Notes: generated by a model not told the origin, from the letters alone. A stretch of DNA of 64,000 bases from an uncultured Planctomycetales bacterium (GCA_964603585.1 CAZRVK010000002.1:115513-179512), one strand, 5' to 3'; shown: positions 42,499 through 64,000, counted from the first letter of the stretch. Made by a program: numbers and translations.

Positions 42499-42537
42499 TT
42501 TCCTCTTTCCTTTCGTAGCGGTTAAACCTGTAAGGAC

Positions 42538-46894: not shown

Positions 46895-46916
46895 CGCGAT
46901 TTTGACGCTCTCCGTG

Positions 46917-47906: not shown

Positions 47907-47921
47907 TATTATATAATCCCC

Positions 47922-47957: not shown

Positions 47958-48039
47958 AACACTCCTTTAGTTTTTACAATTGATCTCTAAGCCCTCGAAA
48001 TATATTTTTATCTGCCGAACATCTTGTATTTATATTATT

Positions 48040-48068
48040 TTTTACCACAACCTGCTGGGTTTGTCAAG
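48040..48068 (-). promoter_or_regulatory. Candidate sigma-70 promoter (TTGACA-17-TAAAAA) on the minus strand
   Basis: The reverse complement reads TTGACA, the 17-nt spacer aacccagcaggttgtgg, then TAAAAA(AT). Confidence 0.35.
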
Positions 48069-48159
48069 ATTTTTTTAAACATTACATCGACGAGAAAAAA
48101 CAATAATTACGAAAATGTTCAATTGATTCACAAAAAACAATTTATATCCCGATAACATT

Positions 48160-49101
48160 TTATCTCCCCCTTAACCTTTTTATCAATGCCGCCTTTAAAA
48201 CAGCCGGATCAGAAACAAACATCCATATCAAACGCGGACGCTTGATCAAATAATAACCCCAGCAAATGGAATCATAGGCTAATATGCCGGCGCAATGCAA
48301 CAGAATACCGATAAAACTCTCATTCTTGATAATTGTTAAATAACGGTTTCTGATCAAATCCAGATTTAAAATGTCGTTCAAATATCCCCTGGCAAAGCCT
48401 TTACCTGCGCCAGGCATTCCCCGGACAGTCCCCCCCCGGACATGATAAGCTATGGCGGAGGGCAAATAATATCCTTTCCAGCCAAACCGGTTTGCCCTCC
48501 AGGCGATATCAAGATCTGCATAAAAAATACCGAATGCCTGATCAAAATATTCTTTTTCTTTAATTTGATCCAGCATTTTTTTACGGTAAAATGCTGCTGC
48601 GCCGCTGACTCCAAAAATAAAACCCGGTTTATCAAATTGGCCCCGGTCCTTTTGGCCATAACCACGATCCTTGGCCCTGCGGAAGAAATCCGGGGATAAC
48701 CCGGTTGAATCCAGGGTTACCTTGTCTGGACGCAGGATCTTTCCGCTGACCATTCCTATCGCAGACCCCATATAAAATCCTTTAACTGCCTGCAGGATGA
48801 AATCCTGATCCAAAACAACATCATCATTAAGGCAAAGTATATACTTACCGTTACTAAAGTGAAGCCCCATATTTAAAGCCTCGGAATAAGACAGCTGTTT
48901 TTCTGTTTTGTGGAGAATAATCGAGGGGTTAAACGATAATGCCTTATTGCGGAATTCCGGGTCTGGGGTGTTATCGATCACGATAACCTGCAATGCGCGG
49001 TAAGACTGCACAGAAACCGAAGCAAGGCAATCTTTCCATAAACCATTCATGCCGGCAGTAACAATGATAACGCTAATCATTTCATTTGACCTGCTATTCA
49101 T
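48160..49101 (-). CDS. Glycosyltransferase family 2
   Basis: The N-terminus is a GT-A fold (ISVIIVTAG...DN, then DDV). The start may be the internal MISVIIV at 49080. Confidence 0.8.
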   Translation of the reverse strand: MNSRSNEMISVIIVTAGMNGLWKDCLASVSVQSYRALQVIVIDNTPDPEFRNKALSFNPSIILHKTEKQLSYSEALNMGLHFSNGKYILCLNDDVVLDQDFILQAVKGFYMGSAIGMVSGKILRPDKVTLDSTGLSPDFFRRAKDRGYGQKDRGQFDKPGFIFGVSGAAAFYRKKMLDQIKEKEYFDQAFGIFYADLDIAWRANRFGWKGYYLPSAIAYHVRGGTVRGMPGAGKGFARGYLNDILNLDLIRNRYLTIIKNESFIGILLHCAGILAYDSICWGYYLIKRPRLIWMFVSDPAVLKAALIKRLRGR

Positions 49102-49123
49102 TTTAACTTAGAATTATAACACA

Positions 49124-50230
49124 ATGTTAAGCCTATTCCTAATTCTAATCTTTTGCCGGCCGTTTATTTCATCCCTGGCCTGGCCAGAAATAAATCAGGC
49201 TCATTCCACAATATTAATTGCTTTCCTGGGATTATGGCTGTTCAAACAGAAATCTAAATTCCATCTAACCGGGAAGTTAGCCGGTTTTGGCGGCATCTTC
49301 GCTGCCGCCATACTCATTTCTATTGTATTCTCCCAGGATAAAATTGCCAGTATAAGGGAATGTTACAAATATCTATTGGCTATAATGATTTTCTTATCTT
49401 GCAGTTATTTAACCCAAAAACAGAAGAAAACAGTGGCCGATTGCCTAGTTCTAAGCGGGGTATCTATCGGCCTTGCGGCAATATATCAATTTTTCTTTGG
49501 ATTCCAGCACACCCTGGAACACCTCGATCCCGCCATACAATATTCCCAATTTACCATGGAGTATCTTTGTTTAAAACGCGTCTTTTTCCCGTTTGTTACC
49601 CCAAACATCCTGGCGGGATATCTGGCGATAACCATCCCCCTTTGCCTTACCCTTAAGCATGGCAAATTAATTGCGCTTGTGCCATTTGCTGCACTGTGCC
49701 TGACCAGATCGATCGGCGGATTATTAAGCCTGCTGATAGGATTATCAGTTTATTATTATTTAAAAGGCATAAATAGGAAAATGTTTCTCGGTATATGCGC
49801 CATAGCTGTTATCTCGGGATTGATCTTCGTCTGGAGGTCAACAGGGACACATGCGCATATCAAGCCGTTTTTTTCCTTAAGCATGAGAATGGATTATTGG
49901 GAGCAAACCTTACGCATAATCCGGGAGTTCCCTTTGACCGGGATAGGTATAGGGAATTTTAATCTGGCAGCTTCACGCTACGCTCATAATTCTTATTTGC
50001 AAATATGGGCAGAAATGGGAATCCTGGGATTAATCAGCATACTCTGGATATCTGCAGATACCCTTAAACACCTGGTTAAAAGGATAAAAAACTCTCCCGC
50101 ACAAAATATTCTTTACGGGTTAGCAGCGGCAAACGCAGTGTTTTTGATAAACAATGTTTACAGCTTTGACTTCTTCTTACCGGAAATCAGTCTTATCTGG
50201 TGGGCAATTCTTGGCTTGAGCAGAGAATAG
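49124..50230 (+). CDS. O-antigen ligase/polymerase family (Wzy/WaaL-like) membrane protein
   Basis: 368 aa with about 10 TM helices and a periplasmic loop carrying H...Y.N.YLQ-like residues (YAHNSYLQIWAEMG). Confidence 0.6.
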   Translation: MLSLFLILIFCRPFISSLAWPEINQAHSTILIAFLGLWLFKQKSKFHLTGKLAGFGGIFAAAILISIVFSQDKIASIRECYKYLLAIMIFLSCSYLTQKQKKTVADCLVLSGVSIGLAAIYQFFFGFQHTLEHLDPAIQYSQFTMEYLCLKRVFFPFVTPNILAGYLAITIPLCLTLKHGKLIALVPFAALCLTRSIGGLLSLLIGLSVYYYLKGINRKMFLGICAIAVISGLIFVWRSTGTHAHIKPFFSLSMRMDYWEQTLRIIREFPLTGIGIGNFNLAASRYAHNSYLQIWAEMGILGLISILWISADTLKHLVKRIKNSPAQNILYGLAAANAVFLINNVYSFDFFLPEISLIWWAILGLSRE

Positions 50231-51937
50231 GTCATAAAATGATTTGTTTTCCCTTAATAATCTGCCGGCTTCTCCGGAAATAACCTTATCCGCCGATGAC
50301 AGAAAATAAACCCGGTCCGCATGCATAACGGCGGAAAGCCGGTGGGAAACAAGGATAACGCTTGAGATCCCCGGAGACCTCTTGAGCCTGGCAAGGATCC
50401 GTTCTTCACTTTCTGAATCCATCGATGACATAGCCTCATCAAGGATGAGTATCTTGGGCCTCTTTACTATCGCCCGGGCAATAGCCAGCCGCTGTTTTTG
50501 CCCCTCGGATATCTTACAGGCGTTCTCGCCAATAATGCTTTTGTATCCTGCCGGCAGACGCTGAATAAATTCATCCGCTTCGGTTAAAACAGCAGCTTCG
50601 ATAATATCACTCATCCTGACCGAAGCATCCCCATATCGTAGATTATTCTCGATAGTGTCATTCCATAAAAACGGGTCTTGCAAGGCAATGCCTATCTGAG
50701 CACGTAACGAACGCAATCGATAATCGCAAATATTGCGTCCGTCAATGAAAATCGTTCCCGCCTCCGGTTGATACAACCTAAGGATCAAATTCAATATAGT
50801 AGTCTTGCCGCTGGCGGAATGCCCGACTAAAGCATTGACCCCCATGCCAAAAGACAAATCCATGCCTTTCAATAAATACCCTTGGCGGCCATATCTGAAA
50901 ACAACGCCTTGGAGCCTGATTTCAGGGTTTTTGATAAGTATATCCCTGGCCTGCGGGCCATCGGCTATACTGCTTTTTTCTTTCAATAGGTCTTCCAGCC
51001 TTTTACAAGAGACTAACCCGAGAGAGATCCTCTGGAAGGCAAATGCAATCCTTGACTGGATATTTACCAGTTGGGATAAATATAACATGATCGCAGTAAA
51101 CGTCCCCATGGAGATCCTTCCGCGGATAACTTGGTATCCTCCAAAAAGGGTGATCATCCCGACCATTATCCTCTCGAGGCTGGAACCCAGGAAATTACTT
51201 ATGATCTCTAACCTTATACTTTTATAATTGATCCGTATGTTATTAGTTAAGGCTCTAAGATAATTCACTGACTCTTTTTTTTCCTTACCGAAAGCCTTTA
51301 CCAGGTACATATGGGAGAAAACTTCCTGTAACCTTTTAAAAATATTTTGCGAATTAACCAGCCATTCCCCCAGGGCCTTGCGCATGCGTAAAGTAAAAAA
51401 TGATACCGGCAAATATAAAACCGGGACAAGCAGTAAAGTGAATCCGGCCATTTGCCAATCAAGATAAGAAACGACGATCAGGGTAAGGAATAACTTCGGC
51501 AGGATATTAATAAGCTCTTCGGGGACACCGGAAATAAAATCGACCACCCTTTCGATATCATAACTTATCTTGAACATATGTTCACCGGTGGATTTATCCT
51601 GAAAGAAATCCACCGATAATCCCTGCAAATGGCTGAAGACTTTGCGATTTATTGCAAAACGCAGCTTTAAAGCAATCTTTTTCTTGAAGAAATTTTCCAG
51701 GGCCTTGATAACACCATCTATAATAAATACCCCTGCTCCGATAACCCCCAGGAAAAAGAAAGATTTCAGGTCTTTACCCATAATCGAGCGGTCCACTATC
51801 AGTTTGCCAAGATAAGGATTGACTAAACCCAGCAAAACGCTGATCCCGCTAAGAGCTAATATCATTACCTGCAATGCACGGTAAGGATAGACATATTTAA
51901 GGAATTTTAAAAAAAGCCTTAATTGTTCTTTATACAT
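50177..51937 (-). CDS. ABC transporter ATP-binding/permease protein (MsbA-like exporter)
   Basis: A 6-TM N-domain followed by an NBD with Walker A GHSASGKTT, signature LSEGQKQRLAIARA and Walker B ILILDEA. Confidence 0.9.
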   Translation of the reverse strand: MYKEQLRLFLKFLKYVYPYRALQVMILALSGISVLLGLVNPYLGKLIVDRSIMGKDLKSFFFLGVIGAGVFIIDGVIKALENFFKKKIALKLRFAINRKVFSHLQGLSVDFFQDKSTGEHMFKISYDIERVVDFISGVPEELINILPKLFLTLIVVSYLDWQMAGFTLLLVPVLYLPVSFFTLRMRKALGEWLVNSQNIFKRLQEVFSHMYLVKAFGKEKKESVNYLRALTNNIRINYKSIRLEIISNFLGSSLERIMVGMITLFGGYQVIRGRISMGTFTAIMLYLSQLVNIQSRIAFAFQRISLGLVSCKRLEDLLKEKSSIADGPQARDILIKNPEIRLQGVVFRYGRQGYLLKGMDLSFGMGVNALVGHSASGKTTILNLILRLYQPEAGTIFIDGRNICDYRLRSLRAQIGIALQDPFLWNDTIENNLRYGDASVRMSDIIEAAVLTEADEFIQRLPAGYKSIIGENACKISEGQKQRLAIARAIVKRPKILILDEAMSSMDSESEERILARLKRSPGISSVILVSHRLSAVMHADRVYFLSSADKVISGEAGRLLRENKSFYDLFSAQAKNCPPDKTDFR

Positions 51938-52785
51938 TGCCTTTTATCTAAAAAAGCCTTGCGCACATAATGATTGGTTAGGAATAAATACCCCATACGG
52001 GGAAGATCATACAATAACCCCGGGAAGAACTTCTTACCGTAATGTCTCGCGCCTTCGTTTTTGGCTATCATATAATAACGGTTTCGCCAGCAGAGATACT
52101 GCCGGAAGAGCTTATCAAAACCGCTGCTGCCGCCGCTATGGCAGCATTTTGCCGCCGGATAAAAAACCGCCTTCCATCCCGCAATCTGCGCGCGCCAGGA
52201 CAGATCCACATCTTCTACCATAAAGAAAAATCTCTCGTCGAAATAACCATTTTCGTCTTTGATCTCAAGCAGCATCTTACGCCGGTAAAAACCGGCACAA
52301 GAGCAAAGGCCAAAAATATTTGTGATCCTGCCGTACCTGACATCATCCTTCTTATTGCTGGCGATATTAAAAAACCTGCGAAACTTGCTAAGATATATGC
52401 CGCAAGAAAACAGGGTCTTCTCATCGGGATTCAATATCTTAGGCTGAACCATTCCCACAGGATATTTCATCTCCTTGATAAAACCAAGTGCTGAATCAAT
52501 AAACCCATCGCAAAGCCTGACATCGCAATCCAGGGTTAATATCCATTCTCCGCTTGAGGCATCAATCCCCTGGTTCCTTGCCCGGGAAGCGCCAAGATTA
52601 TTCTTATTCTCGATCACTTTAACCCGGGGATATTGCCTTTTGACAAAATCTACCGTCCCGTCGTCTGATCCGTTATCTACAAGAATAACCTCGATCTGGG
52701 CGCTTTTAATCTGCGAAAACAAGGAATCCAGACATGCATCGGCTGCGGAAAGGTTGTTAAAGGTCAAAATTACTACTGAAAGCAT
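51919..52785 (-). CDS. Glycosyltransferase family 2
   Basis: MLSVVILTFNNLSAADACLDSL...VDNGSDDGT and a DxD motif (LDCD). Confidence 0.85.
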   Translation of the reverse strand: MLSVVILTFNNLSAADACLDSLFSQIKSAQIEVILVDNGSDDGTVDFVKRQYPRVKVIENKNNLGASRARNQGIDASSGEWILTLDCDVRLCDGFIDSALGFIKEMKYPVGMVQPKILNPDEKTLFSCGIYLSKFRRFFNIASNKKDDVRYGRITNIFGLCSCAGFYRRKMLLEIKDENGYFDERFFFMVEDVDLSWRAQIAGWKAVFYPAAKCCHSGGSSGFDKLFRQYLCWRNRYYMIAKNEGARHYGKKFFPGLLYDLPRMGYLFLTNHYVRKAFLDKRQCIKNN

Positions 52786-54109
52786 TCTTTATCCCCTCTA
52801 AATCTTTTATGGTTAAATCATCATTGTAGGCTTTGGGTTTCGAGTTCCCATCATAATCCTGCCATTCGCAAGGGAGCTGTTCTTTTTTGGCTCTCAAATA
52901 ATTAAAATATTGCGTCCCCGGGAAAGGCGTGGCAAAAGAGAATTGCACGGAATCAGGATGCACGTCTTTTATATAACCTACAGTCGCCTTTAACGTGTCC
53001 TTGTTTTCTCCCGGCAGTCCAAGGCAAAATGTCAGGTGCACCTTTACTCCGGACCTTTTAGTGGCCTTAATCATGGAGGTAGCTTTATCCAAATCCAGAT
53101 TTTTCCGGCAGAGGCTTAAAATCCCTTTATCCGCGGATTCGATCCCGTATTTGATCGCATAAAGTCCGGCCTCGGACATATTATCCAGCAATTCTTCATC
53201 CATAAGATCTGCTCTTGCCATTACCGCCCAGGGGACTTTGATCCCTCTATTCTTTATTTGAGCGCAAATATCCAGAACATGCCTGCGGTCAACATTAAAG
53301 ACATCATCATCAAAATATACCGCCTTAAAATCGAATTTATTTAAAAGATACTCCATCTCATCTACGACATCTACCGGGTTTCTTTTTCTATAGCCTTTAT
53401 TCCGGTAAATTACTTGTGGCCAAAGACAAAAACTGCAGCAAAAAGGGCACCCCCGGCTGCTCCACATCTGCACGTTGGGAACAGCTAACCCGGCAAAACC
53501 ATCATTGTAATTGTAAATCGGCACATCCAACCTTTCCGGCCAGGGTAAAGCATCTATCTCGATATCCAAAGACGGCTCATTGATAATTATTCCCGAGGCA
53601 GAACGTAACCCCAATCCCCCGACATTTTTAGGATCGCATCCTCGCTCTAAACAAGTTACCAGTTCTACTAACGCCATTTCATACTCCGCGATAAGCACGT
53701 AATCAATAAAATCGTATTCATCCAGGATCTGACGGGCAAAAGTACTGGCATGAGTCCCGCAAAGAGCAATTTGTACAGAAGGTGCTTTACGGAGAATCTT
53801 ACGGACCAGACTAAGATCATTCTTAAAAGAGGGGGTCGAAACTTCCACTACCGCCAGCGCAGGATCAAAATCGGCTATTTTACGAATACACTCCTCTTCG
53901 GAGATCCTTTCTGCAATGGCATCGATCAATTTCGCTTCTTTTCCCCGGCTTTTCATGAACGCTGCGGCATAAGCAAGAAAAAAAGGAAAAGGGATATAAT
54001 GGAGTTTTCCGTCTGCCTCCGGCAGAGCGGTAAAAGGCCAGCGGGAACCCGACCTTACCCCCAGCCTATTATCCTCAAACCAAGGCAGGTTAACTAAAAC
54101 TGTACGCAT
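52757..54109 (-). CDS. B12-binding domain radical SAM protein
   Basis: An N-terminal cobalamin-binding-like domain. GCPFCCSFC fits CxxxCxxC, and a PGENKDT-type region follows. Confidence 0.8.
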   Translation of the reverse strand: MRTVLVNLPWFEDNRLGVRSGSRWPFTALPEADGKLHYIPFPFFLAYAAAFMKSRGKEAKLIDAIAERISEEECIRKIADFDPALAVVEVSTPSFKNDLSLVRKILRKAPSVQIALCGTHASTFARQILDEYDFIDYVLIAEYEMALVELVTCLERGCDPKNVGGLGLRSASGIIINEPSLDIEIDALPWPERLDVPIYNYNDGFAGLAVPNVQMWSSRGCPFCCSFCLWPQVIYRNKGYRKRNPVDVVDEMEYLLNKFDFKAVYFDDDVFNVDRRHVLDICAQIKNRGIKVPWAVMARADLMDEELLDNMSEAGLYAIKYGIESADKGILSLCRKNLDLDKATSMIKATKRSGVKVHLTFCLGLPGENKDTLKATVGYIKDVHPDSVQFSFATPFPGTQYFNYLRAKKEQLPCEWQDYDGNSKPKAYNDDLTIKDLEGIKNAFSSNFDL

Positions 54110-54110
54110 A

Positions 54111-54920
54111 TTATTTATTCAGGTTAAGGTGTTGCTCGATCTGTTCAAAGAATATCTTGATCTTAGAGATGTTCTGGTTCACATCTTTGGAATCACAATT
54201 GATGCACTCCGTGACACTGCGCAGGAGATCTAAGTTTTTAAGCAATATGGCACATTGCTCCTGAATGGCTTTTTGCAGATTATCTTGAGCAACCATAAAA
54301 GATTTGTTGAGAGCCTCCCGGGTTTGGTTAAGATCCCAGTCTATTTTATCCAGGCTGGTCCTTAAAGTAGATACCCCTTCCCTGGCATCATATTGGGACT
54401 GGCTTAAAAGGTCTTTGAGCTCTTCCAACATTTGAAGGGCATCCCCATTCAGCTCGGTTAAGACATTGTTTAATGTTACCATCCCGGCCTTAACATCCAG
54501 ATCAAACCGGCCGATACTATCATTAATACCTTTGAGCGCACGATTGGTATCCAAACTGCCCCTGATCAATCCTTCATTCAAAGACTCTAACATCCTCTCC
54601 GCCTGCGCAAAGAATACCACCAGTCGCGTATCCATATCAGTTAATCTTTGGTTTAGATATTTCGAGATCAACTGCACCTCAAACTTAAGGTCAAAAAGCA
54701 TTTGGCCAAGGTCGGCAAATACACGAATAAGCGCCGATAACAAAATACCGGCTAATATTACTGCCAGAGGTATCAATGGCGGCTTAGACTTATCGGGCAT
54801 GGAAACGAACAAATAAACACCTAAGCATACGCCGAATATAGAGATAAGCCAGGAAAACACCAAAAGAACTAATACCGAAGGCAATTTTTTAATCTTCATT
54901 TGGACGCTCCTTTTGGGCAA
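54111..54920 (-). CDS. Membrane-anchored coiled-coil protein
   Basis: Two N-terminal TM helices followed by ~200 aa of coiled coil. A Wzz-like role is my speculation. Confidence 0.35.
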   Translation of the reverse strand: MPKRSVQMKIKKLPSVLVLLVFSWLISIFGVCLGVYLFVSMPDKSKPPLIPLAVILAGILLSALIRVFADLGQMLFDLKFEVQLISKYLNQRLTDMDTRLVVFFAQAERMLESLNEGLIRGSLDTNRALKGINDSIGRFDLDVKAGMVTLNNVLTELNGDALQMLEELKDLLSQSQYDAREGVSTLRTSLDKIDWDLNQTREALNKSFMVAQDNLQKAIQEQCAILLKNLDLLRSVTECINCDSKDVNQNISKIKIFFEQIEQHLNLNK

Positions 54921-56215
54921 AATACATTTCTGCTCTTTTCCTGGGACATCTCCAGCATAGGGATAATCCCGGGGAATCTATCGATCAAATTCTGTAACCA
55001 CAGGTCAATATTATCTGCAACACTCAAGAAATGGCTTTTAATATAAGCATGTTTTTTTGTCAGGAATCCGCTCCAATCCGGATGGCGTTCAACCAGAATG
55101 ATCAGCTTCTCCAGCAACTTGCTATCGCTAACCGCATATACACAGGTCAATAAATCCCGGTAAAGTTCCCGTTGAAAATCGATATTCTTAAACCTGTCTT
55201 TTATTCCTTTGGCGGTAACAAGGATCATGGCTAAAATACTTTGCGCAAACTCCTGACGGGGATAGAGAAAGGTGGGGATATTATCCCAGGCTAATGCATA
55301 CTGATAAAAAAAAGCCAGATCCAATAAGGCCAGCCAGGAAGATAATAAGTGGTCCGAAGCGCGGCCCAATTCATCTTTTCCCTGAAAGATCAAAAGTTCA
55401 AGGTCTTTCAGACAATGGTGAAAAACCAGCAGGAAATCAAGATAAATAAGCTCTACCCGCGCGCAAACCAAATCCTCCTCTAAATAACGGTTGGCCAATC
55501 CGACATTATCCTTCATTTTAAAAGCAAAGCTTTCTGGAGCGGAATAATACTCTTTTTCCTGATAATATCTAACGTGCCATCTCCAATATGTGTTTAAAAG
55601 CGAGGCCAGATCATCTTTTTTCAGATGATGGCATACAGCCTGTGGCTGATACGATAAACCATATCCTAAACTGCTAAGCCTGCGGCTTAAATCAACGTCC
55701 TCATAATTATTTTTAAGCTGCTCATTATAAAAACCGACCAGGCTAAGCGCCTTTTTGCTGAATACCGTGTTTGAGCCAAAAAGAAATTCCGGCGGGCGCA
55801 AGGGATCATCCCAATACTGCCGCATATGCACAGAACGCCAAAGGTCAAATACCGAAGAAATATTGTCTTCAACCAATTTCCCCCCGGCTCCGGCGATATT
55901 CGGATTATCGAATCCTCGCATTAAAGACGACAGCCATGTGCTTTCCGGGATGCAATCAGCGTCTAAAGCAGCGATGTATTCGCTCTCGATGGACTTTATC
56001 GCGGTATTTCTGGCGCAGGCTAATCCCAGATTATACTGGTGTCTTAATAATCTTACCGGATACCTCCCGGCAATTTGACCGGTGCCATCGCTTGATCCAT
56101 CATCGACGACTACTATCTCCTCCACCGGATAATCCTGCTTAAGGACAGCCTCCAGGCAACAGGCAATCGTAGAAGCGGCATTAAAACAAGGGATATAGAT
56201 ACTGGTCTTCTTCAT
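54896..56215 (-). CDS. Glycosyltransferase family 2 with C-terminal helical extension
   Basis: IYIPCFNAASTIACCLEAVLKQDYPVEEIVVVDDGSSDGT and a DxD motif (LDADC). Confidence 0.8.
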   Translation of the reverse strand: MKKTSIYIPCFNAASTIACCLEAVLKQDYPVEEIVVVDDGSSDGTGQIAGRYPVRLLRHQYNLGLACARNTAIKSIESEYIAALDADCIPESTWLSSLMRGFDNPNIAGAGGKLVEDNISSVFDLWRSVHMRQYWDDPLRPPEFLFGSNTVFSKKALSLVGFYNEQLKNNYEDVDLSRRLSSLGYGLSYQPQAVCHHLKKDDLASLLNTYWRWHVRYYQEKEYYSAPESFAFKMKDNVGLANRYLEEDLVCARVELIYLDFLLVFHHCLKDLELLIFQGKDELGRASDHLLSSWLALLDLAFFYQYALAWDNIPTFLYPRQEFAQSILAMILVTAKGIKDRFKNIDFQRELYRDLLTCVYAVSDSKLLEKLIILVERHPDWSGFLTKKHAYIKSHFLSVADNIDLWLQNLIDRFPGIIPMLEMSQEKSRNVFCPKGASK

Positions 56216-57396
56216 TTTCTCATGCTTCTTATTTTTGCTCGTAAGGTGGCTTTAGCTGATCTGATCTCCTCGGATAAACCCGGACGCAAGCCGGGCTTTA
56301 AATTTCGGCGCTTAAGTATAATAAGCCGTGCCTTACGCAGGAGTTTTCCCGCCAGATATTTTGTATTTTGATATGCCTGAAAATACTTTTTCTCATAAAA
56401 AGCGCGTTTTTTGAGTTTTTTTACCTTTGCCAAAACAGGCTGCTTTACAGACGGCTTGCCGAAATTATGATCGTAACAGCTCATCATGCATCCCTGGCAT
56501 CCATGTTTTATGATCCGCTGGCGAATACGGTTATGGCGGTACGAATCCCAGATATCAGATAATTTCTTACTCCGGACATTACCGATAATATATTTCGATA
56601 ATACCCAGCAGGGATACACATTGCCTTCGGCAGATATCGGACAAGAACTCCACAACGCCGGACAATGGTCAAAAACCCGTTCTTTCTTTGCCTGCCGGGA
56701 TAAATACGCGGGGATATTGCAAAGATACCCTTCGGGGTTAGTATGGATCCCGTACTCCCGGGCAAGCCTGACAGTCTCTTTGATATTCTTATTCACATCT
56801 TCGAGTAAATTATCAGGAAAGAGAAAATTATCCTTACGATGCTTATCCAGGAGGAAAATCTCGCTAAAAGGCTGGAATTTCACCGTAGTCACCCCATATT
56901 TATGCGCCAAATCCATCACATAAGGCAATGAGGCATAATTCAAAGCGCTGATCGTCGTTGCAATGGTGCTTTCGATCTTGTATTCTCTTAGGTGCTTTAA
57001 TGCCTCGACCGCTTTATGAAAATTACCTTTACCTCTTAAAGAATCATGGACATCCTCATTTCCCTCAATGGAGATATTTACCACCCCCATCCCGGCTAAA
57101 GCAAGCTTCCTGGCAACATCCTTATCAAGCAAAGTCCCGTTTGACGTAAGGCAGGTATTGATTTTATGATGACTGACTAAACTAACCAGATCAAAAATAT
57201 CCTCTCGAAGTAACGGCTCTCCTCCGCTAAAAACTATGCTCTCCGGGCAAAGCAAAGAAGCGTCGTTAATCAATCCGCGCAGCTCGTGGGAGCTCAATTC
57301 CTTATTGCCTGCCGTATCGGGGATCTGGCACATCGCACATCTTAAGTTGCATCGATGAGTTACAGAAACAATAATTTCTTTAAGACGATTTGCCAT
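56212..57396 (-). CDS. Radical SAM/SPASM domain protein
   Basis: VTHRCNLRCAMC (CxxxCxxC) and a C-terminal Cys-rich SPASM region (CPALWSSCP...YPCW...CQGCMMSC). Confidence 0.8.
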   Translation of the reverse strand: MANRLKEIIVSVTHRCNLRCAMCQIPDTAGNKELSSHELRGLINDASLLCPESIVFSGGEPLLREDIFDLVSLVSHHKINTCLTSNGTLLDKDVARKLALAGMGVVNISIEGNEDVHDSLRGKGNFHKAVEALKHLREYKIESTIATTISALNYASLPYVMDLAHKYGVTTVKFQPFSEIFLLDKHRKDNFLFPDNLLEDVNKNIKETVRLAREYGIHTNPEGYLCNIPAYLSRQAKKERVFDHCPALWSSCPISAEGNVYPCWVLSKYIIGNVRSKKLSDIWDSYRHNRIRQRIIKHGCQGCMMSCYDHNFGKPSVKQPVLAKVKKLKKRAFYEKKYFQAYQNTKYLAGKLLRKARLIILKRRNLKPGLRPGLSEEIRSAKATLRAKIRSMRK

Positions 57397-58553
57397 TATT
57401 CCCTCTTTCCCGAAGCCAGGCGGTCATAATCCTCCAATAAAGCCAAACCCTTTGCTAAAAGCGCCTTCTTCTCGGATTTCCCAGCTTCGGTCCCGGTAAC
57501 CTTGCCGATAAAACTATCTACGATATCCTTTAAGGAATCCGATTCCGGATGTCCCCAGCAAGTCTGCAGGCACGGCTTAAGACAAAGACGCATCCTTTGA
57601 CGGGCATCTTCTGCCTCTTTAGTATGCAGGCAATCTGTCAAGCTCATTTGTCTAATATTCCCAAAGGCCGGGCCGCAGCTGCGCACAAAACCATCCGGGC
57701 CGATATCAACAAACACGAAAGGGTTGCACTTCCAATCCTTTCGGGTCAGTTTCCCCTGGAAATACCCCAACCAAAGGTAGGGATCATGCAAAGAAGCCAC
57801 TAATCCAGATTCATTCCTATACTGCTCGATTTTATCGATCTGCTTTTTAAAAGCATCTAAAAGATCTTGGGTGATCCACAAATGCCCGCCGGATATGGTA
57901 TTTTGCATATCATTTTGCGCAACTATCACCGGATGGTAAACCAAGCATTCCACCCCGATCTCTTTAGCCAAAAAAATGATCGCATAAAGTTCATCCACGT
58001 TTTCCTTCATCATCGTCGTCCAAATAGAAATCTGCGGCCCGGACTGTTTAATCCGCTTTGCCTGGCATAAAAGGTTTAGTGCATTTACTGCTTTTAAATA
58101 TGCCCCGGGCGTACCGCGGATATAGTCGTGCGTCTTTTGAGTAGCTCCATCCAAAGAAACCGCAATATTGCTTATCCCGGAGGCAATGATATTATCTGCG
58201 ATTGCCGGGGTATCAATCAAACTGCCATTAGTGACCACTTCGGTTTTCAGGCCCCGGGATACAGAATACCTGAGGATCTGAAAAATATCTTTCCTCAAAA
58301 ATACTTCGCCTCCGGTAAAAAGCACCGTGCAATCAGTGCCCCAGGCGGCCACCTCATCCAAAATCCTCTTAACCAGTTCCAGTTCAAGCTCACAATCCTT
58401 GAGCACATGCCGGACCCCGCACATCTGGCAGTTGAAATTACACCGGTGGGAGAGGCTGAAGAAAACCCAATACGGCTTAGCCAAAGGCCGGTTAAGCGCC
58501 TCGGAGAAATAAAAATCCAGGTTCATTTTAAATTCATCCAACAGATCAGCCAT
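57396..58553 (-). CDS. Radical SAM/SPASM domain protein
   Basis: LSHRCNFNCQMC and a C-terminal SPASM region (CNPFVFVDIGPDGFVRSCGP...CLKPCLQTC). Confidence 0.8.
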   Translation of the reverse strand: MADLLDEFKMNLDFYFSEALNRPLAKPYWVFFSLSHRCNFNCQMCGVRHVLKDCELELELVKRILDEVAAWGTDCTVLFTGGEVFLRKDIFQILRYSVSRGLKTEVVTNGSLIDTPAIADNIIASGISNIAVSLDGATQKTHDYIRGTPGAYLKAVNALNLLCQAKRIKQSGPQISIWTTMMKENVDELYAIIFLAKEIGVECLVYHPVIVAQNDMQNTISGGHLWITQDLLDAFKKQIDKIEQYRNESGLVASLHDPYLWLGYFQGKLTRKDWKCNPFVFVDIGPDGFVRSCGPAFGNIRQMSLTDCLHTKEAEDARQRMRLCLKPCLQTCWGHPESDSLKDIVDSFIGKVTGTEAGKSEKKALLAKGLALLEDYDRLASGKRE

Positions 58554-58566
58554 TTATCATGTCCTT

Positions 58567-59790
58567 TTAGGATCCATCCCAATACCTGTATTTAAAATCC
58601 CCGTTCATTCCCAGACCATACTTCTTCTTCAAATAAACACTTACGTGTTCTGCGACAATCCGGTGGTATTTATCATTGTAATGCGTATCGATCACAAACT
58701 GTAATGGCTCGGATTGTGCGGCATGTAATATCTTGTCTGATAAATCAAGATAAGAAACCCCCAACTCTAAACAGGCCTGCTCAATCTCCGGCAATTTAGA
58801 CTGGCTCATATTGACAATAATAAAATCCAGGTTGTGCTCCCGGAAAACCTTTTGATATTCTACCATCAAAAGAAATATTAATCTGTCGAAATCCTCTGCG
58901 TTATAGCCTTGGCGCCTCTTGTTCTGCCAGGCAACTATCCCCAGGGTATCTTTAAAATACTCCGCATCATTTTGCCTTAACTGGTGGTCAACCCTTTGCC
59001 TTTTAGCAAAATAATTCATCAATGTCAATATATTACTGCGGCTGTAGAGAGGTTTACCGGACCGGCTGGCATATCCTTCATTTATAGTCCGGTGCTGTCC
59101 GAGCAGGGCATCTTTACAAAAGGCCGCTTCTCTTTCAAAATCCTTACGGGTATGTTCGGGGTCCTGTAAAATCAAATTATTCTTGTCATCGCTAAGGATA
59201 AACCGCGGCTTGGCAGTTGTGGACCCCGGGGTTGTTATGTCCATACAGCGGTCCAAATAATCCTGTGAAAAGATAAAAATAACGGCTGCATCGGGATTGA
59301 ATTTAAAACCATCCCTTTTTACCTGCAGAAGTGACTGGTCGAAACCAAATCCCCCTATACCCATATTAATTATTTCCACCTTCGGCAATGCCTGTTCAAT
59401 CACTTCCGTAATACGATCTCCGTAATTAACCCCTTCGCCAAATAATGTGGACTCCCCAAGCGCAATTATCCTGAACTCTTCCTCCGGGGACTGAAGAGGA
59501 AATTCTCTATCCCTTAGGCCATGCGAATTAATAGAATATGTAACATTAAAATCGCTGGTGATAAGAGTAGCTTCGGCCCCGGGGTTAAGAACCCCGCCTA
59601 ATTCCGGATCAAATTTTTTATATGAAAAATCCCGCTGCTTGGATAAAGAAACCGTTTTGGTGTCGATATAAGCTATGGTCTTGGACAAAAGCGACCTCTT
59701 TAAATAATACCCGGTAAGATTCTCTCCAATAACTACCGCAAGCAATAAGGCCGCCACCAACATGGAAATATTAGCGAATAAATTCCTCAT
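58567..59790 (-). CDS. Membrane-anchored SGNH-hydrolase-like protein (degenerate GDS→GES)
   Basis: A TM helix, then IIALGESTLFGEG and a DTHYND (DxxH) C-terminal motif. It is the third such paralog in the window. Confidence 0.45.
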   Translation of the reverse strand: MRNLFANISMLVAALLLAVVIGENLTGYYLKRSLLSKTIAYIDTKTVSLSKQRDFSYKKFDPELGGVLNPGAEATLITSDFNVTYSINSHGLRDREFPLQSPEEEFRIIALGESTLFGEGVNYGDRITEVIEQALPKVEIINMGIGGFGFDQSLLQVKRDGFKFNPDAAVIFIFSQDYLDRCMDITTPGSTTAKPRFILSDDKNNLILQDPEHTRKDFEREAAFCKDALLGQHRTINEGYASRSGKPLYSRSNILTLMNYFAKRQRVDHQLRQNDAEYFKDTLGIVAWQNKRRQGYNAEDFDRLIFLLMVEYQKVFREHNLDFIIVNMSQSKLPEIEQACLELGVSYLDLSDKILHAAQSEPLQFVIDTHYNDKYHRIVAEHVSVYLKKKYGLGMNGDFKYRYWDGS

Positions 59791-59803
59791 TAACCGCTCC
59801 GGA

Positions 59804-60871
59804 CTATTTGGGCCTCAATAACCTTAAGAGTGACGGGAATGAAAAACAAGGCTGATAACAGTAAACATCACAGCGTTTAATATCCCGGCGTGCCGCAGAT
59901 GATTGCGGGGAATGCCATATCTGCTTTAAATCATAGTTATGCTCCCTGACCGGTATATGCGCCTTGCACATAAAAACACACGGTTCAAACTTTCCCTGTC
60001 TCTTCGGGTCTGACATAGTGATAAAAATATTCTTGTATCCGGCCATACATTGCCAGTCGCCTTTACGCATCCGGCGCAAATAATACCTGGCAATCAATTC
60101 GCTATCAATAAAATCATTGATCCTGACATGCCTGGCGCCAAACTCGGTGATTTTTTTATAAAGCTGTAAAAATAACTGTACCGCTTCGGGATCGGGCCAC
60201 AGCGAGGTATTTTCCTTACTGGAGAAATCCGTGTTATCCGGAAGATAAGGAAGGATATCCATGATATCCACCCCCAGAGAATCGGCCTCAATGAATAAAT
60301 CATAAAGCTCTGGGATATTAGGTTTTAAAACAACCGCCCCTATACCTATGGAATATTTAAGGCCGCCTCTTTTGCGCAGATCCGTTAATATCTTTATCCC
60401 CTGCACGGCATTTTCGTAAGACAAATCGTTTTGACGAAGGCGATTATGGGTGTTTTCCAGGCCATCGATAGAGATATGAAAATGCGAAACCCCGGCATAA
60501 GCCAGACGCGCAGCATGTTCTGCCAGATAAAAACCGTTGGTGGTAAGAATTACATCCATCCCGGTATGCCGTGCAAAGGTTGTGGTCTCGGCGATGAGAT
60601 CCGGGATCAGAAGCGGTTCTCCTCCGGTAAGCACGAGCCTTTTTATCCCAAACTGTTTCTTGGCAATTGTAATGATCTTTTTAATCTCCTCATACGGCAT
60701 CTCCTCCTCATGCTTAGTAATGTATTTATGCACCGAGCACATTCGGCAGCGCAGATTACATCTGCTGGTAAGGCTGATCTGAAGAGTATCCGGGTTAACC
60801 AGGGGATAACCAAAAGAGTACGCGGTTTTAAATAACAATACCTTACCAGCTTCTTTTAAGCCATTTATCAT
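59804..60871 (-). CDS. Radical SAM/SPASM domain protein
   Basis: LTSRCNLRCRMC and a C-terminal SPASM region (CMAGYKNIFI...CVFMC...CDVYCYQPC). Confidence 0.8.
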   Translation of the reverse strand: MINGLKEAGKVLLFKTAYSFGYPLVNPDTLQISLTSRCNLRCRMCSVHKYITKHEEEMPYEEIKKIITIAKKQFGIKRLVLTGGEPLLIPDLIAETTTFARHTGMDVILTTNGFYLAEHAARLAYAGVSHFHISIDGLENTHNRLRQNDLSYENAVQGIKILTDLRKRGGLKYSIGIGAVVLKPNIPELYDLFIEADSLGVDIMDILPYLPDNTDFSSKENTSLWPDPEAVQLFLQLYKKITEFGARHVRINDFIDSELIARYYLRRMRKGDWQCMAGYKNIFITMSDPKRQGKFEPCVFMCKAHIPVREHNYDLKQIWHSPQSSAARRDIKRCDVYCYQPCFSFPSLLRLLRPK

Positions 60872-63231
60872 CGTTTATCCAGGATCCGGTTGCACTCCTT
60901 GCAGGAAATGTTTTTCACATCCAGCCATCTCCGGAACCGCAGGTAATTACGCACGACCACCTTGGCATCTTGTTTATAAATATTGCCAAAATTAAATGTG
61001 GAGATGTTGCAGCAGGGATGCACAAAACAATCTGCATCTATATAAAAGCCGAAATTACAGAACCGGGTTTCTTTGCTCTCCAGAGAAATGCCGAGATTCA
61101 GTTCAACTCCTTTTTCCGCCGCATCTTTTTTCAAGGCGCCAAAGCTGGCACGGAAAGCATCCTCATAAAAATTCACCTGTTCTGCGTCAATAGATAAGCC
61201 GCGTGAAAAACTAACCAGGGGTATCAAAGTGACCTCCGGCACCAGGTTCAGGCGTGCCAGTTCTATTAAACTGCCGATTGCCGGGTAGTTTTTTTTCATC
61301 AAAACACTGTTAAAGGCAAGGACCGGTGATTTTTTGTTTGATTGCGACTTATAAGCGTTTAACCGCGTTATATTCCGCACAACTTTTTCTAAACTGCTTC
61401 CGGCCTTTATCGCAGCATATATCTCGGGGTTGGCAGAATCTACAGAGAACCTGATCTTATCTACCCCGATCTCAACTATCCTGCCAGCCATATATTCATC
61501 TAACAGGGTGCCGTTAGTTACAAACCAGACGGTCAATCCGCGTCGTTTTGTGTCCGCCAATATCTCTAAAATGTCCGGGCAAAGGAGGGGTTCCCCCAAC
61601 CCCTGGGTATTCACCTCTCTTATCCCGGGAAAAACACCTGACAGTTTATCCATAATTGCCGTGAATTTATCCCGGGTCAGGTTCTTTACCTCGTCCTGGT
61701 GCCCTCGCAATGACCTCCAACAAATATTACAATGCAAATTGCAATTATTGGTAACTTCAAACTGCAGGGTAGAAATCTGCTTGAGGACAGCACTATCTCT
61801 CTTGGAGCGGACCTTATCCATTAAGTGCTCGAGCAAAGAAACCGGTCTTTCCGCCAGTCCCGAGGCGAACCGGCCTTTAACCCGGATATGGGGATCGGAT
61901 TTTATTCGCAGATATTCAATGATCGCATCGAGCTTTTTTATCTCCGAAGCTAATCCTTTTGCCGACAATTTGGAGCGAAAAACCAGCAACTCCTGTATAA
62001 GCAGACTTATCGAAGCCTGATTATAATAGCCGTTTCTCTGGAGATAGATCAAATATCTTTTTGTGATCAGGAATATGTCGTTGGTAGTCGGCCCGGGGAA
62101 ATAGGCTGCACCCATCAGGCATGGTTTGGCGCAGGTGCGCATTGCTATGCGCATATCTTCTGCCTCCCGGGAAAACCAAATTTCGCGTAAAGTATTCTTA
62201 CTGAAATCACCGATCTGCCCGGGACAAACATTGACCTTACGGTCTTTGAGAATAATGATCCTGTTAAAACCGGCAAAACAAAACTTTGCTGAAGTAAGAG
62301 AATTTGCAAAATACTGCTTCAGGTTCTGCAACGAATCTACGGTGTTACTAATGAACCAGTGGTCTTTACAGCTCATTTTATAATCGATAACCCGGTCTAT
62401 CTCTTGATTTAACAAAGGCAACCTTTCCGGAGGGATAACAAACTCGTCTTTTATTGTCTTCTTATAATAATTATCGTTCTCGGAGGCATACGGTTGAAAG
62501 AATGCATTCACCCCGAGCTCATGGGCAAGACGCACATACTTAAGCATCTCGGGAAAGTTCCTATTCGTTAAAACGCAGGCCATCACAATCACCGGGCGAT
62601 CCGGACGGCTGCCGCGAGTAGAGGAAACTGACTTCCTTAAATCAGCAAACCTTTGGAGATTATTTATCACAATATCAAACAGGCCGGGACGGTTGCGATG
62701 ATAGTCATGGGTCGATGCGGTTGCGCCATCAATCGAAACGTTGATCTGATAAAGCGGGATATCCAGCAGCCTAAGGCAATTTTCTTCGTTCAATAACAGG
62801 CCATTGGTTGTGACCTCCGTCATAATGCCTAATTCATTTGAATATTTCAAGATATCAAACAAATATGTCAGCATAAACGGTTCCCCTCCGCTGAAATAAC
62901 ATTGGCTGACCCCCAACTCTTTAGCTTGGTCGAAAAGCTTCTTTAACTCTGCAAAACTTAATTCTTCCTCCGGGAGAGTCGCCTGACGAGACCATATTTT
63001 ACAGATCCTGCACTGCAATTGGCACCGCCTCATAAAATCGAACTGGATCACAGTCGGAGGGACAAGAGGGTAATCCAGGATCCTGGAATAATAATACCCG
63101 CAGTCGCGCCTAAACTGTTCAAGGTCTTCCAAGGGATGGCTCAAGATCAACCGGTTCAGCATTGCCTCGGCAAGATCGATATCTTCTTCGTAAAAACACT
63201 GTAATGATTTATCCGTTCTGCTCTCCATCAT
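60868..63231 (-). CDS. Fusion of two radical SAM/SPASM modules (double rSAM protein)
   Basis: 787 aa. The first module carries FMRRCQLQCRICKIW and a SPASM-like CFAGF...CPGQ...CAKPC. The second carries VTNNCNLHCNICWRS and a C-terminal CNFGFYIDADCFVHPCCN...CKECN. Confidence 0.8.
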   Translation of the reverse strand: MMESRTDKSLQCFYEEDIDLAEAMLNRLILSHPLEDLEQFRRDCGYYYSRILDYPLVPPTVIQFDFMRRCQLQCRICKIWSRQATLPEEELSFAELKKLFDQAKELGVSQCYFSGGEPFMLTYLFDILKYSNELGIMTEVTTNGLLLNEENCLRLLDIPLYQINVSIDGATASTHDYHRNRPGLFDIVINNLQRFADLRKSVSSTRGSRPDRPVIVMACVLTNRNFPEMLKYVRLAHELGVNAFFQPYASENDNYYKKTIKDEFVIPPERLPLLNQEIDRVIDYKMSCKDHWFISNTVDSLQNLKQYFANSLTSAKFCFAGFNRIIILKDRKVNVCPGQIGDFSKNTLREIWFSREAEDMRIAMRTCAKPCLMGAAYFPGPTTNDIFLITKRYLIYLQRNGYYNQASISLLIQELLVFRSKLSAKGLASEIKKLDAIIEYLRIKSDPHIRVKGRFASGLAERPVSLLEHLMDKVRSKRDSAVLKQISTLQFEVTNNCNLHCNICWRSLRGHQDEVKNLTRDKFTAIMDKLSGVFPGIREVNTQGLGEPLLCPDILEILADTKRRGLTVWFVTNGTLLDEYMAGRIVEIGVDKIRFSVDSANPEIYAAIKAGSSLEKVVRNITRLNAYKSQSNKKSPVLAFNSVLMKKNYPAIGSLIELARLNLVPEVTLIPLVSFSRGLSIDAEQVNFYEDAFRASFGALKKDAAEKGVELNLGISLESKETRFCNFGFYIDADCFVHPCCNISTFNFGNIYKQDAKVVVRNYLRFRRWLDVKNISCKECNRILDKR

Positions 63232-63247
63232 CCCTCGTTGATATTTT

Positions 63248-64000
63248 TCATTGCCGGCACAAGGCGTCTTTGTGGCCGCGGGCCTGGCACACCCTTTCGG
63301 CTTCAGCCGTGCGTTCAGTTTCCCTTATCGCCGTACATAAAGTGTTTATATCCTTCAATTCGGGTTCATACATTTCCGGGAATAAACAAAATTGCCTGCA
63401 TTTACGGATCGTCTTCCTCATTATCCTGGCGCCTTTACCGTACCAAATCTTTCGTAAACTGTTTTTCCTGATATCACCGATCATATCTCTGCACATCCAT
63501 ATCCCATAACTTTTCTTTTCATTATAAGAAATGATCAGCCGAGTAAATCCGATATAACAACTGCCTAATGGCGGCAGACAGCCGTTCTTGAAATAGTCGT
63601 TCAACAGATCGACTTGGGGAGGGAAATCCAAGTAACCGGTACGCGCATTAAACTCTTTAAGTTCATCCACAACCCCTTTAAAAGCCTGTAACTCTGAAGC
63701 AGGGATCCAAAAAGGGACCGATGCAAAATCCCTTTTAAGCGGATCAGCATTACTGACATGAGCCGGCCGGAGTGCCAGGCGCGTACACCCCAATTCCTGC
63801 CCCAGTAAAGCTATATTCAGCAAATCCCTGTAGTTTTGCCGCATAATGGTAGCTGTTAAACCGACCGATCTGCCGTTTTTAACGAACTTTCTTATATTGC
63901 CTGTCACCACATTAAAGGCCCCTGGCACACCGCGTATTGCATCATAAATCTCTGGCGTAGAGCCATCAAGCGATATCTGTAGATGGCCGGGGTTAGATCG
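63248..64000 (-). CDS. Radical SAM-like protein, 5'-truncated by window edge
   Basis: The reading frame stays open to position 64000 (…ISLDGSTPEIYDAIRGVPGAFNVV…). A C-terminal Cys-rich region (CRQFCLFPE) follows. The N-terminus lies outside the window. Confidence 0.55.
   Translation of the reverse strand, partial: RSNPGHLQISLDGSTPEIYDAIRGVPGAFNVVTGNIRKFVKNGRSVGLTATIMRQNYRDLLNIALLGQELGCTRLALRPAHVSNADPLKRDFASVPFWIPASELQAFKGVVDELKEFNARTGYLDFPPQVDLLNDYFKNGCLPPLGSCYIGFTRLIISYNEKKSYGIWMCRDMIGDIRKNSLRKIWYGKGARIMRKTIRKCRQFCLFPEMYEPELKDINTLCTAIRETERTAEAERVCQARGHKDALCRQ

Follow-up and report, generated by a model that had tools for sequence, protein, structure and literature searches.

What is made by an operon in which radical S-adenosylmethionine (rSAM) enzymes alternate with glycosyltransferases? 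The question is raised by positions 48160-64000 of a 64,000-nt stretch of DNA (GCA_964603585.1, CAZRVK010000002.1:115513-179512; hereafter the window), deposited under the name of an uncultured Planctomycetales bacterium, which a first-pass annotation made from the sequence alone had described as an envelope glycan or glycolipid locus of an undescribed system class. Comparison of this operon with an overlapping contig and with related loci suggests that it probably encodes a Wzm/Wzt-dependent pathway for a cell-surface glycan whose sugars are tailored by radical chemistry, a reading in which each single detail is less secure than the whole.

Extent and Gene Content of the Operon

Open reading frame (ORF) mapping and Pfam scans find the genes at the coordinates first assigned to them, and the initial count of seven rSAM domains and three glycosyltransferase family 2 (GT2) enzymes within 48160-64000 holds. 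Radical_SAM domains are present in the genes at 56212-57396, 57396-58553 and 59804-60871, twice in the fusion gene at 60868-63231, and in the gene for a B12-binding-like enzyme at 52757-54109, while the fragment at 63248-64000 (minus strand) is assigned through weak SPASM and rSAM-family NCBIfam matches. Pfam likewise recovers the O-antigen ligase-like (Wzy_C) protein and the MsbA-like exporter, and the SGNH-fold protein is supported by profile-profile comparison with hhalign. Neighboring genes from 48160 to the end of the window are spaced by only -54 to +22 nt.

That the cluster continues past position 64000 had been predicted, and this is borne out by L001, a public 19.2-kb contig (Logan) found via a 786-aa form of the fusion protein, the 787-aa protein of the window having no exact match on record. 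L001 and the window share 11,391 nt without a single mismatch (0), and L001 extends the operon by 7.8 kb, to virtual coordinate 71847. The rSAM gene at 63248-64000, previously called truncated, is cut by the window edge only: the window holds the C-terminal 250 aa of a protein (rSAM369) that is complete in L001 at 369 aa (L001:7491-8600). Upstream of it lie rSAM323, a membrane-anchored GDSL protein (345 aa), a GT2-rSAM fusion (642 aa), the rSAM/SPASM enzyme rSAM402 and, at the upstream end, the C-terminal 764 aa of a Wzt-like polysaccharide ATP-binding cassette (ABC) ATPase (L001:1-2295; virtual 69553-71847). The window region is thus the downstream two-thirds of a ~24-kb operon with ten rSAM domains, four GT2 domains and two SGNH proteins, in which the 18 genes from GT2_a (48160-49101) to wzt are separated by -54 to +37 nt.

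The Radical SAM Paralogues and Their Fusions to Glycosyltransferases

Every rSAM module carries the CX3CX2C motif, as CNLRCAMC at residue 16 of rSAM394 (56212-57396, minus; Radical_SAM 91 bits), CNLRCRMC at residue 38 of rSAM355 (59804-60871, minus; 95 bits), CQLQCRIC at residue 70 and CNLHCNIC at residue 497 of the 787-aa fusion (60868-63231, minus; N-module ~61882-63231, C-module ~60868-61881), and CNQHCIMC at residue 35 of the complete rSAM369. Nine of the ten modules, all except the B12-binding-like enzyme, are full-length paralogues, 23-35% identical to one another, and can be aligned over a homologous Cys-bearing C-terminal domain that contains three invariant Cys (five to eight in total) and CX12GX4C-like and CxxPCxxxC-like motifs; rSAM355, for example, has Cys at residues 275, 298, 302, 334, 338 and 342. 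When the SPASM domain is called with Pfam PF13186 (gathering threshold 21.5 bits), only part of an earlier assignment of five SPASM-type modules to the window stands: rSAM394 (44.5 bits) and the N-module of the fusion (34.1 bits) pass, rSAM385 (57396-58553, minus), with its SPASM/twitch-like C-terminal domain, is borderline at 21.1 bits, and rSAM355 and the fusion C-module give no match. In L001, rSAM402 (37.8 bits), GT2-rSAM (22.6 bits) and rSAM323 (23.4 bits) pass, and rSAM369 stays below the threshold at 17.4 bits.

The modules can be traced individually across lineages. Single-linkage clustering of rSAM modules from ten loci gave stable orthogroups: rSAM385 and rSAM394 belong to ones present in all seven loci spanning their region, GT2-rSAM and rSAM355 to orthogroups of six loci each, the fusion N-module (787N) to one of four, rSAM402 and rSAM369 to orthogroups of three each, and rSAM323 to one of two. 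Traceable modules are 38-77% identical to their orthologs in other loci (50-77% for rSAM369 in L002, L007 and L009). The low identity among paralogues, combined with the higher identity among orthologs and the assignment of seven of the nine to orthogroups, fits a series of specialized, non-redundant steps, and the set appears to be an old, specialized paralogue family.

The most direct link between these modules and the glycosyltransferases comes from gene fusions. L007 encodes the two halves of the 787-aa protein by separate genes (448 and 323 aa, 61 and 58% identity), and the ortholog of GT2_c (54896-56215) is fused N-terminally to a 787N-type rSAM module in P0003, P0005 (L002) and L006, in proteins of 880 and 887 aa and, for the L006 copy, at least 841 aa. 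In L002, GT2-rSAM is joined to a 787C-like module in a 963-aa GT2+rSAM+787C protein. Fusion types therefore vary by lineage among GT2+rSAM, rSAM+rSAM and GT2+rSAM+rSAM, and such "Rosetta stone" fusions imply that the rSAM modules are functionally tied to glycosyltransferases.

Searches with a sequence profile of all nine modules rank SkfB and BlsE jointly at the top, and DesII, viperin, MoaA and BlsE are among the top fold and profile matches of the rSAM set; SkfB, SuiB, CteB and PqqE are also strong relatives by fold and profile. Among solved folds, those of sugar-modifying enzymes come nearest, BlsE for the paralogues and AprD4 for the B12-binding-like enzyme; these are resemblances, with a small margin over the peptide maturases.

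Comparison with Peptide Maturases and Housekeeping Enzymes

SPASM enzymes are best known for maturing peptides that are made by the ribosome and modified after translation (RiPPs), and the modules could accordingly be imagined to cross-link a peptide or protein encoded elsewhere, with glycosylation and export to follow, much as for glycocins or mycofactocin. The highest-ranking PDB profile match is SkfB, and for GT2_b (51919-52785) and GT2_c the best-scoring model is the mycofactocin glycosyltransferase MftF (84 and 116 bits). With the maturases of sactipeptides, ranthipeptides, streptide, PQQ and mycofactocin, the present modules share an rSAM core followed by a Cys-rich C-terminal auxiliary-cluster domain, and the mycofactocin maturase, too, has a GT2 partner, MftF. 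Unlike in RiPP maturase clusters, the rSAM modules here are fused to glycosyltransferases and not to RiPP recognition element (RRE) domains.

The remaining parts of a RiPP cluster were not found either. The first-pass annotation had argued that the gene spacing leaves no room for a precursor peptide, and this holds across the full operon: gaps reach +22 nt in the window and +37 nt in the extension, and from GT2_a to wzt no credible small or Cys/Gly-rich ORF occurs outside the coding frames. The only intergenic stretch, 253 nt at 47907-48159, contains junk ORFs of 17-43 aa. The 7.8 kb beyond the window edge, where a conventional precursor might have been expected, instead hold three rSAM genes, the GT2-rSAM fusion, an SGNH protein and the Wzt-like ATPase. 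Among the called genes of syntenic loci no small ORF recurs, the only such genes being a DUF5989-type pair beside a carbamoyltransferase in L014. No cluster protein matches RRE/PqqD (PF05402) or a peptidase at E <= 0.01, and the 586-aa ABC exporter (50177-51937) has no N-terminal peptidase C39 domain. RiPP maturase models score far below their cut-offs (StsB 93-104 vs 625 bits; PapB 51-78 vs 340; WgkB 55-124 vs 650; PqqE 64-109 vs 381), as do the mycofactocin models MftC (78-114 vs 265) and MftF (84-116 vs 280), and no small precursor or chaperone gene of the mycofactocin kind is present. Peptide maturation is therefore a very improbable function for this operon.

Well-characterized housekeeping families had also been raised as a possible ordinary identity for the rSAM enzymes. 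None of the modules reaches any NCBIfam equivalog cut-off, and no model covers the orthogroups. The MoaA model TIGR02666 gives 50-116 bits vs 284 and the anaerobic sulfatase-maturating enzyme (anSME) model TIGR03942 gives 71 vs 349; the best NCBIfam match of rSAM394 is NirJ2, at 123 vs 500, and the BlsE model scores 62.7-91.6 vs 400 on the paralogues. Scores on the MoaA, anSME, NirJ/Ahb, PqqE and MftC models amount to a quarter to a third of the cut-offs. Pairing of an anSME with a sulfatase was considered and rejected on this score and because sulfatase-family genes adjoin the cluster in L002 only, with none in the window operon.

The B12-Binding-Like Radical SAM Enzyme

The tenth rSAM protein (52757-54109, minus; 450 aa) combines a B12-binding-like domain (41.9 bits vs a 32.1 cut-off) with a Radical_SAM domain (59.5 bits). 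Its best NCBIfam match is HpnJ (TIGR03471), at 249 bits vs 577.6 and over model positions 1-389 of 472. An AlphaFold2 model (pLDDT 88.3) has AprD4 (6fd2) as its best PDB fold, with a full-length TM-score of 0.77-0.79 and 20% identity, and the AprD4 family model NF033070 gives 93 bits vs 500. AprD4 is a paromamine 1,2-diol dehydratase, not a methylase, and is reported not to bind cobalamin (PMC12931638). HpnJ, placed in the group with other or unknown transformations, has been implicated in turning a lipid-bound glucosamine into a cyclitol (PMC13459092). Since these are the closest characterized relatives, C-methylation, put forward in the first-pass annotation, is possible but not favored; family models of cobalamin-dependent rSAM methylases score 40-126 bits against cut-offs of 282-750.

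The HpnJ match also bears on whether the radical enzymes might modify a lipid (a polyprenol, a hopanoid-like or a membrane-spanning lipid) to which the glycosyltransferases add a head group, yielding an unusual glycolipid. HpnJ and calditol synthase (Cds) are both thought to remodel a sugar on a lipid carrier, and HpnJ itself is proposed to act on the sugar moiety. The present enzyme differs from HpnJ in its sub-cut-off score, in the absence of shc and hpn genes from the operon and related loci, and in belonging to a family specific to this Omnitrophota cluster. A match of the rSAM modules to the glycerol dialkyl glycerol tetraether (GDGT) enzyme GDGT-MAS is restricted to the generic rSAM core. 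None of the ten loci examined contains an shc, prenyl synthase, fab or pls gene, the MsbA-like gene is no conserved member of the cluster, and the Wzm/Wzt and WecA-like genes described below point to a polyprenyl-pyrophosphate-linked glycan. A lipid substrate is thus improbable. Ladderane, GDGT and hopanoid synthesis were each rejected as the primary reading because no locus contains lipid-synthesis genes, and published work on lipid-related rSAM enzymes of Omnitrophota deals not with this cluster but with Mss, Tes and Hbs, which occur in a minority of genomes.

Glycosyltransferases, Export and Accessory Proteins

Three GT2 enzymes are encoded within 48160-64000. GT2_c (54896-56215, minus; 439 aa, Pfam Glycos_transf_2 105.9 bits) has DDGS, DAD and ED motifs and a ~220-aa C-terminal helical domain, its nearest PDB sequence is the glycan-elongating chondroitin polymerase K4CP (5e-20), and its orthologs in L007, L013 and L014 are 45-50% identical. 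GT2_b (51919-52785, minus; 288 aa, 95.6 bits), which always comes after the B12-like rSAM gene, is 45-51% identical to its orthologs in L007 and L013. GT2_a (48160-49101, minus; 313 aa, 53 bits) is 35% identical to GT2_b, and its L007 ortholog (50% identity) directly follows that of GT2_b. The B12-like rSAM gene of L015, L016, L017 and the P0175 locus likewise has a GT2 gene (278-289 aa) as its immediate successor.

The upstream end of the operon supplies a candidate export system. The Wzt-like fragment of L001 carries Walker B and the H-loop, followed by a ~660-aa C-terminal extension that consists of three ~220-aa repeats (pairwise z 27-35 vs shuffles) and matches no Pfam family. It is 38-40% identical to ATPases of 903-907 aa in related loci, whose nucleotide-binding domains match TagH (193 bits) and Wzt (151 bits) and each of which is preceded by a Wzm-like ABC2_membrane gene. 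Both components of a Wzm/Wzt pathway, an extended Wzt ATPase and a Wzm permease, are thus found, the permease in related loci.

Between GT2_a and GT2_b the window carries two further genes. The first encodes a polytopic protein of the Wzy_C family (O-antigen ligase, polymerase or O-oligosaccharyltransferase type; 49124-50230, plus; 368 aa, 67.6 bits vs a cut-off of 31.7, at least six hydrophobic segments), and starts 22 nt from the divergent GT2_a start. Its 3' end overlaps by 54 nt (50177-50230) that of the convergent second gene, which encodes the MsbA-like half-size ABC exporter with ABC_membrane and ABC_tran domains (50177-51937, minus; 297 bits vs a cut-off of 602 on the MsbA model) and in turn overlaps GT2_b by 19 nt. 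A Wzy_C gene is not found at this position in L007, L013 or L014. Because the flanking GT2_b and GT2_a adjoin in L007, the Wzy-like and MsbA-like genes are lineage-specific insertions outside the conserved core. Within GT2_a, at 49086-49114, there is a sigma-70-like match (TTGACC-17-TAGAAT); such matches are no commoner than in shuffles, and a promoter and terminator scan of 44400-52000 gave no excess over shuffles.

The 407-aa SGNH-fold protein of the divergent GDSL family (58567-59790, minus) has one N-terminal hydrophobic segment, predicted to anchor it in the membrane, and a weak match to Pfam GDSL_2. Its G-[DE]-S motif and His370 are invariant in orthologs, and comparison over the whole length with the Pfam-positive family of the 345-aa GDSL protein gives a probability of 99.4% and E = 2.6e-21 (hhalign). 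PDB sequence searches with the SGNH-like and Wzy-like proteins returned no match.

A small membrane protein encoded at 54111-54920 (minus; true start probably Met8, near 54899) was recognized from its hydrophobicity and an ortholog alignment. Two hydrophobic segments that make up a two-transmembrane (2-TM) hairpin are followed by a coiled coil of variable length, whose insert ranges from ~0 to 150 aa between lineages, and by a conserved 35-aa C-terminal motif, EQINCDxKDINQNIxQIKxFFExIExHLDLKK. The seven aligned orthologs (alignment A5) are 106-269 aa long and always lie between GT2_c and the B12-like rSAM. The protein belongs to no Pfam or NCBIfam family, and a search of 1.84 billion proteins yielded 142 representatives, matched at their N- and C-terminal ends only. 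A role as molecular ruler or adaptor is pure speculation.

Conservation and Distribution of the Locus

Conservation of the neighborhood, proposed at the outset as a check, was confirmed through syntenic loci that retain a six-gene core. This core, found wherever a locus spans it, comprises rSAM385, rSAM394, GT2_c, the small 2-TM protein, the B12-like rSAM and GT2_b (51919-58553 in the window), and Wzm, the 903-907-aa Wzt and GT2-rSAM recur at the cluster head.

The genes that accompany this core bear out the envelope-glycan context first suggested for the window, as does the continuation of the operon into a GT2-rSAM fusion and a Wzt-like ATPase. A WecA-like phosphoglycosyl transferase (PF00953) is found in L011/L012 and L013, with 100 bits on the WecA model against a cut-off of 326, and L011 and L013 add a GT4 enzyme and an FAD oxidoreductase. 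L016 contains a GT9 heptosyltransferase-family gene, PMT_2 GT-C enzymes and an Asn-synthase-type amidotransferase; the P0175 locus has two DegT aminotransferases and a NodU-like carbamoyltransferase, the latter also in L014; L015 has a polysaccharide deacetylase and L017 an arylsulfotransferase; and CysD/CysN occur in L013, with CysD in L014. The WecA-like, GT4, GT9, PMT_2, DegT, carbamoyltransferase, deacetylase, amidotransferase and CysD/CysN functions all belong to sugar pathways.

The number of rSAM enzymes ranges from five in L014 to at least 13, six of them B12-type, within 21 kb of L015, so that the set in the window is expanded, not the extreme. The locus in L015:1-21362, the most rSAM-dense version with the same GT2, small protein, B12-like rSAM and GT2 core, carries the NCBI label "Patescibacteria group" and is probably mis-binned.

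The families differ widely in abundance. Among 5.8 billion proteins the very rare 787N family has five close members, and pattern scans located it once in 185,579 species genomes and at three loci in JGI metagenomes. It is too rare for mapping the cluster, for which the GT2-rSAM and B12-like families proved suitable. The 642-aa GT2-rSAM fusion has at least 366 homologues, the top 120 all full-length and 51-65% identical. For the B12-like rSAM, homologues at E <= 1e-20 number at least 1349, of which the best 120 are 55-62% identical. Organism-named homologues of both are almost all assigned to Candidatus Omnitrophota/Omnitrophica, so that the cluster appears to be a widespread Omnitrophota trait and no oddity of a single metagenome-assembled genome (MAG). 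A housekeeping block downstream of the operon (EF-G/YchF-like/PurH/FolC-like/MnmE; 37406-44505, minus) is syntenic, at 38-61% identity, with the cluster flank in GCA_041643315.1 (L014:1-5775), where it abuts the opposite cluster end, which suggests inversion of the whole glycan locus between lineages. From the homologue names and this synteny, the window most likely derives from an Omnitrophota genome.

A Model for Radical Tailoring of a Surface Glycan

The ABC-transporter-dependent glycan pathways, such as those of Escherichia coli O9a (WbdA/WbdD with Wzm/Wzt) and TagGH, offer the closest known framework. In these systems a polyprenyl-linked glycan is completed in the cytoplasm and then exported by Wzm/Wzt. 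The present loci resemble them in their GT2 and GT4 enzymes, Wzm, C-terminally extended Wzt and Wzy_C/WaaL-family protein and, in related loci, a WecA-like enzyme; unlike them, the window operon is without classical nucleoside diphosphate (NDP)-sugar genes. The Wzt extension, at ~660 aa, also exceeds several times over the size of the domain with which E. coli O9a Wzt binds carbohydrate. To our knowledge, no ABC-dependent glycan pathway contains five to at least 13 rSAM enzymes or GT2-rSAM fusions.

On this framework, a WecA-type enzyme, as seen in related loci, would start the glycan on polyprenyl phosphate, and GT4 and GT2 transferases would extend the chain at the cytoplasmic face of the membrane. 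The nine SPASM/twitch-type paralogues and the AprD4/HpnJ-like enzyme would abstract hydrogen from sugar carbons without using oxygen, with oxidation, epimerization, dehydration or deoxygenation, decarboxylation and ring contraction as candidate reactions. Tailoring would most likely come after every glycosyl transfer, with the lipid-linked oligosaccharide as substrate. Such an order would account for the fusion of rSAM modules to GT2 domains, which may keep the sites of transfer and tailoring together. Oxygen-free tailoring would suit anaerobes and explain the lack of classical NDP-sugar tailoring genes in the window operon. Wzm/Wzt would then export the finished chain, with the triple-repeat Wzt extension as candidate reader of its modified terminus, comparable to O9a-type Wzt, and the membrane-anchored SGNH enzymes may modify the chain outside the cytoplasm. 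In this genome, the Wzy_C-family enzyme could ligate the chain to an acceptor, either lipid A-core or protein.

Within the same Wzm/Wzt pathway, the rSAM enzymes might instead make unusual NDP-sugars that the fused or adjacent GT2 enzymes then transfer. Such an order of events would agree with the characterized sugar-acting relatives, as BlsE, DesII, viperin and MoaA, among the top matches, use soluble small molecules, and with the lack of classical NDP-sugar tailoring genes in the window operon; a GT-rSAM fusion is, moreover, equally suited to channelling a donor sugar. Against it, the rSAM modules outnumber the glycosyltransferases about two to one (ten vs four here, at least 13 vs three in L015), no nucleotidyltransferase or sugar-nucleotide binding domain occurs in the window operon, and AprD4, which the B12-like enzyme resembles most closely in fold, works on an already glycosylated substrate, a pseudo-disaccharide. 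Action on nucleotide sugars is thus unlikely, though the lipid and peptide readings are much less likely than this alternative.

Several points weigh against tailoring of a lipid-linked glycan in an Omnitrophota genome. The analysis shows gene content, synteny, fusions, orthogroups, fold relatives and the absence of RiPP parts; from these we infer that sugars are the radical substrates, when they are tailored, and every chemical step. Characterized sugar-modifying rSAM enzymes, as far as we know, act on small molecules (NDP-sugars or pseudo-oligosaccharides) and none on lipid-linked glycans. Because L001 ends inside wzt, and a look-up with the GT2-rSAM protein reached no further, the Wzm and initiating transferase of the window's own cluster lie outside the view. 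Finally, the Omnitrophota assignment of the window draws on homologue names and synteny with one assembly, and one relative is labelled "uncultured Planctomycetales".

A more far-reaching version of radical tailoring, which is possible but doubtful, would have the rSAM paralogues act on the assembled lipid-linked polysaccharide and introduce linkages made by no glycan pathway known to us, for example C-C or ether cross-links from residue to residue, carbocyclic (cyclitol-type) units, or multiple deoxygenations and epimerizations of the polymer. If so, the product would be a chemically new and possibly hydrolysis-resistant coat, a phylum-wide signature of Omnitrophota, and the pathway a new class of glycan biosynthesis that may be termed "radical glycan maturation", the sugar analogue of RiPP maturation.

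Relation to Described Systems

Both the logic of ABC-dependent assembly and export and the individual sugar-modifying rSAM enzymes of antibiotic pathways are known. Those of AprD4, BtrN, GenK, DesII and BlsE employ one or two rSAM enzymes on soluble antibiotic intermediates, whereas nine paralogues are found here in an envelope-glycan export operon, and the rSAM chemistry on sugars known to us is confined to a small number of antibiotic and cofactor pathways, each using one or two such enzymes. The novelty lies in the combination of a conserved paralogous rSAM battery in an envelope-glycan operon, GT2-rSAM fusions, a cluster-specific family of small membrane proteins and an Omnitrophota-wide distribution. 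The earlier claim of an undescribed system class is consistent with the literature searched, in which no description of this cluster was found; coverage was incomplete for subscription journals, and absence there is not proof. The main comparative paper on Omnitrophota makes no mention of radical SAM, glycosyltransferases or lipopolysaccharide (PMC10066038).

The GT2-rSAM fusion proteins are at present annotated merely as "glycosyltransferase", and genome-mining tools will mistake loci of this kind for RiPP clusters. An assembly line with five conserved, glycosyltransferase-fused rSAM orthogroups throughout a phylum would open a new field of rSAM enzymology and glycobiology, for which the orthogroups provide a concrete set for expression and testing. 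It also predicts a novel surface polymer on Omnitrophota, which are ultra-small, possibly host-dependent bacteria that contact other cells only via their surface.

Other Features of the Window

Directly downstream of the glycan operon, after the 253-nt gap, a lysine-2,3-aminomutase-like rSAM gene (AblA 522.7 vs 525.4 bits) is coupled to two D-Ala-D-Ala-ligase-like ATP-grasp genes (44698-47906, minus). This trio is not beside the cluster in other loci and may encode a beta-amino-acid dipeptide pathway.

A second B12-binding rSAM protein of 486 aa, with sub-cut-off matches to BchE (220 bits) and HpnJ (166 bits), is translationally coupled to two FabF-like ketosynthases at 1113-5117 (minus), an arrangement that we take to be the "ladderane-like" signature of genome-mining tools. 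Calls of this type have been reported in Omnitrophota MAGs by a Cariaco Basin study.

An apparent second envelope-related region (22006-23028, 24980-26020, 27882-30988 and 31032-32087, minus) encodes two more anchored GDSL/SGNH paralogues, a 537-aa polytopic protein without a family, a PMT_2 (GT-C) and TPR protein and a PKD-domain protein; an AT-skew peak at 28-30 kb is probably due to Phe/Leu-rich membrane proteins. The sole Rfam match in the window, unrelated to the glycan operon, is a cyclic di-GMP-I riboswitch (26218-26305, plus; 77.5 bits vs 35), located directly upstream of a gene whose exported 128-aa product belongs to the TIGR04073 "exosortase system-associated" family (26347-26733, plus; 74.6 bits vs 50). 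A complete resistance-nodulation-division efflux operon, comprising a 1069-aa AcrB-type pump, an HlyD-family adaptor and an OEP outer-membrane factor, is encoded at 9240-14646 (minus) and fits a diderm envelope.

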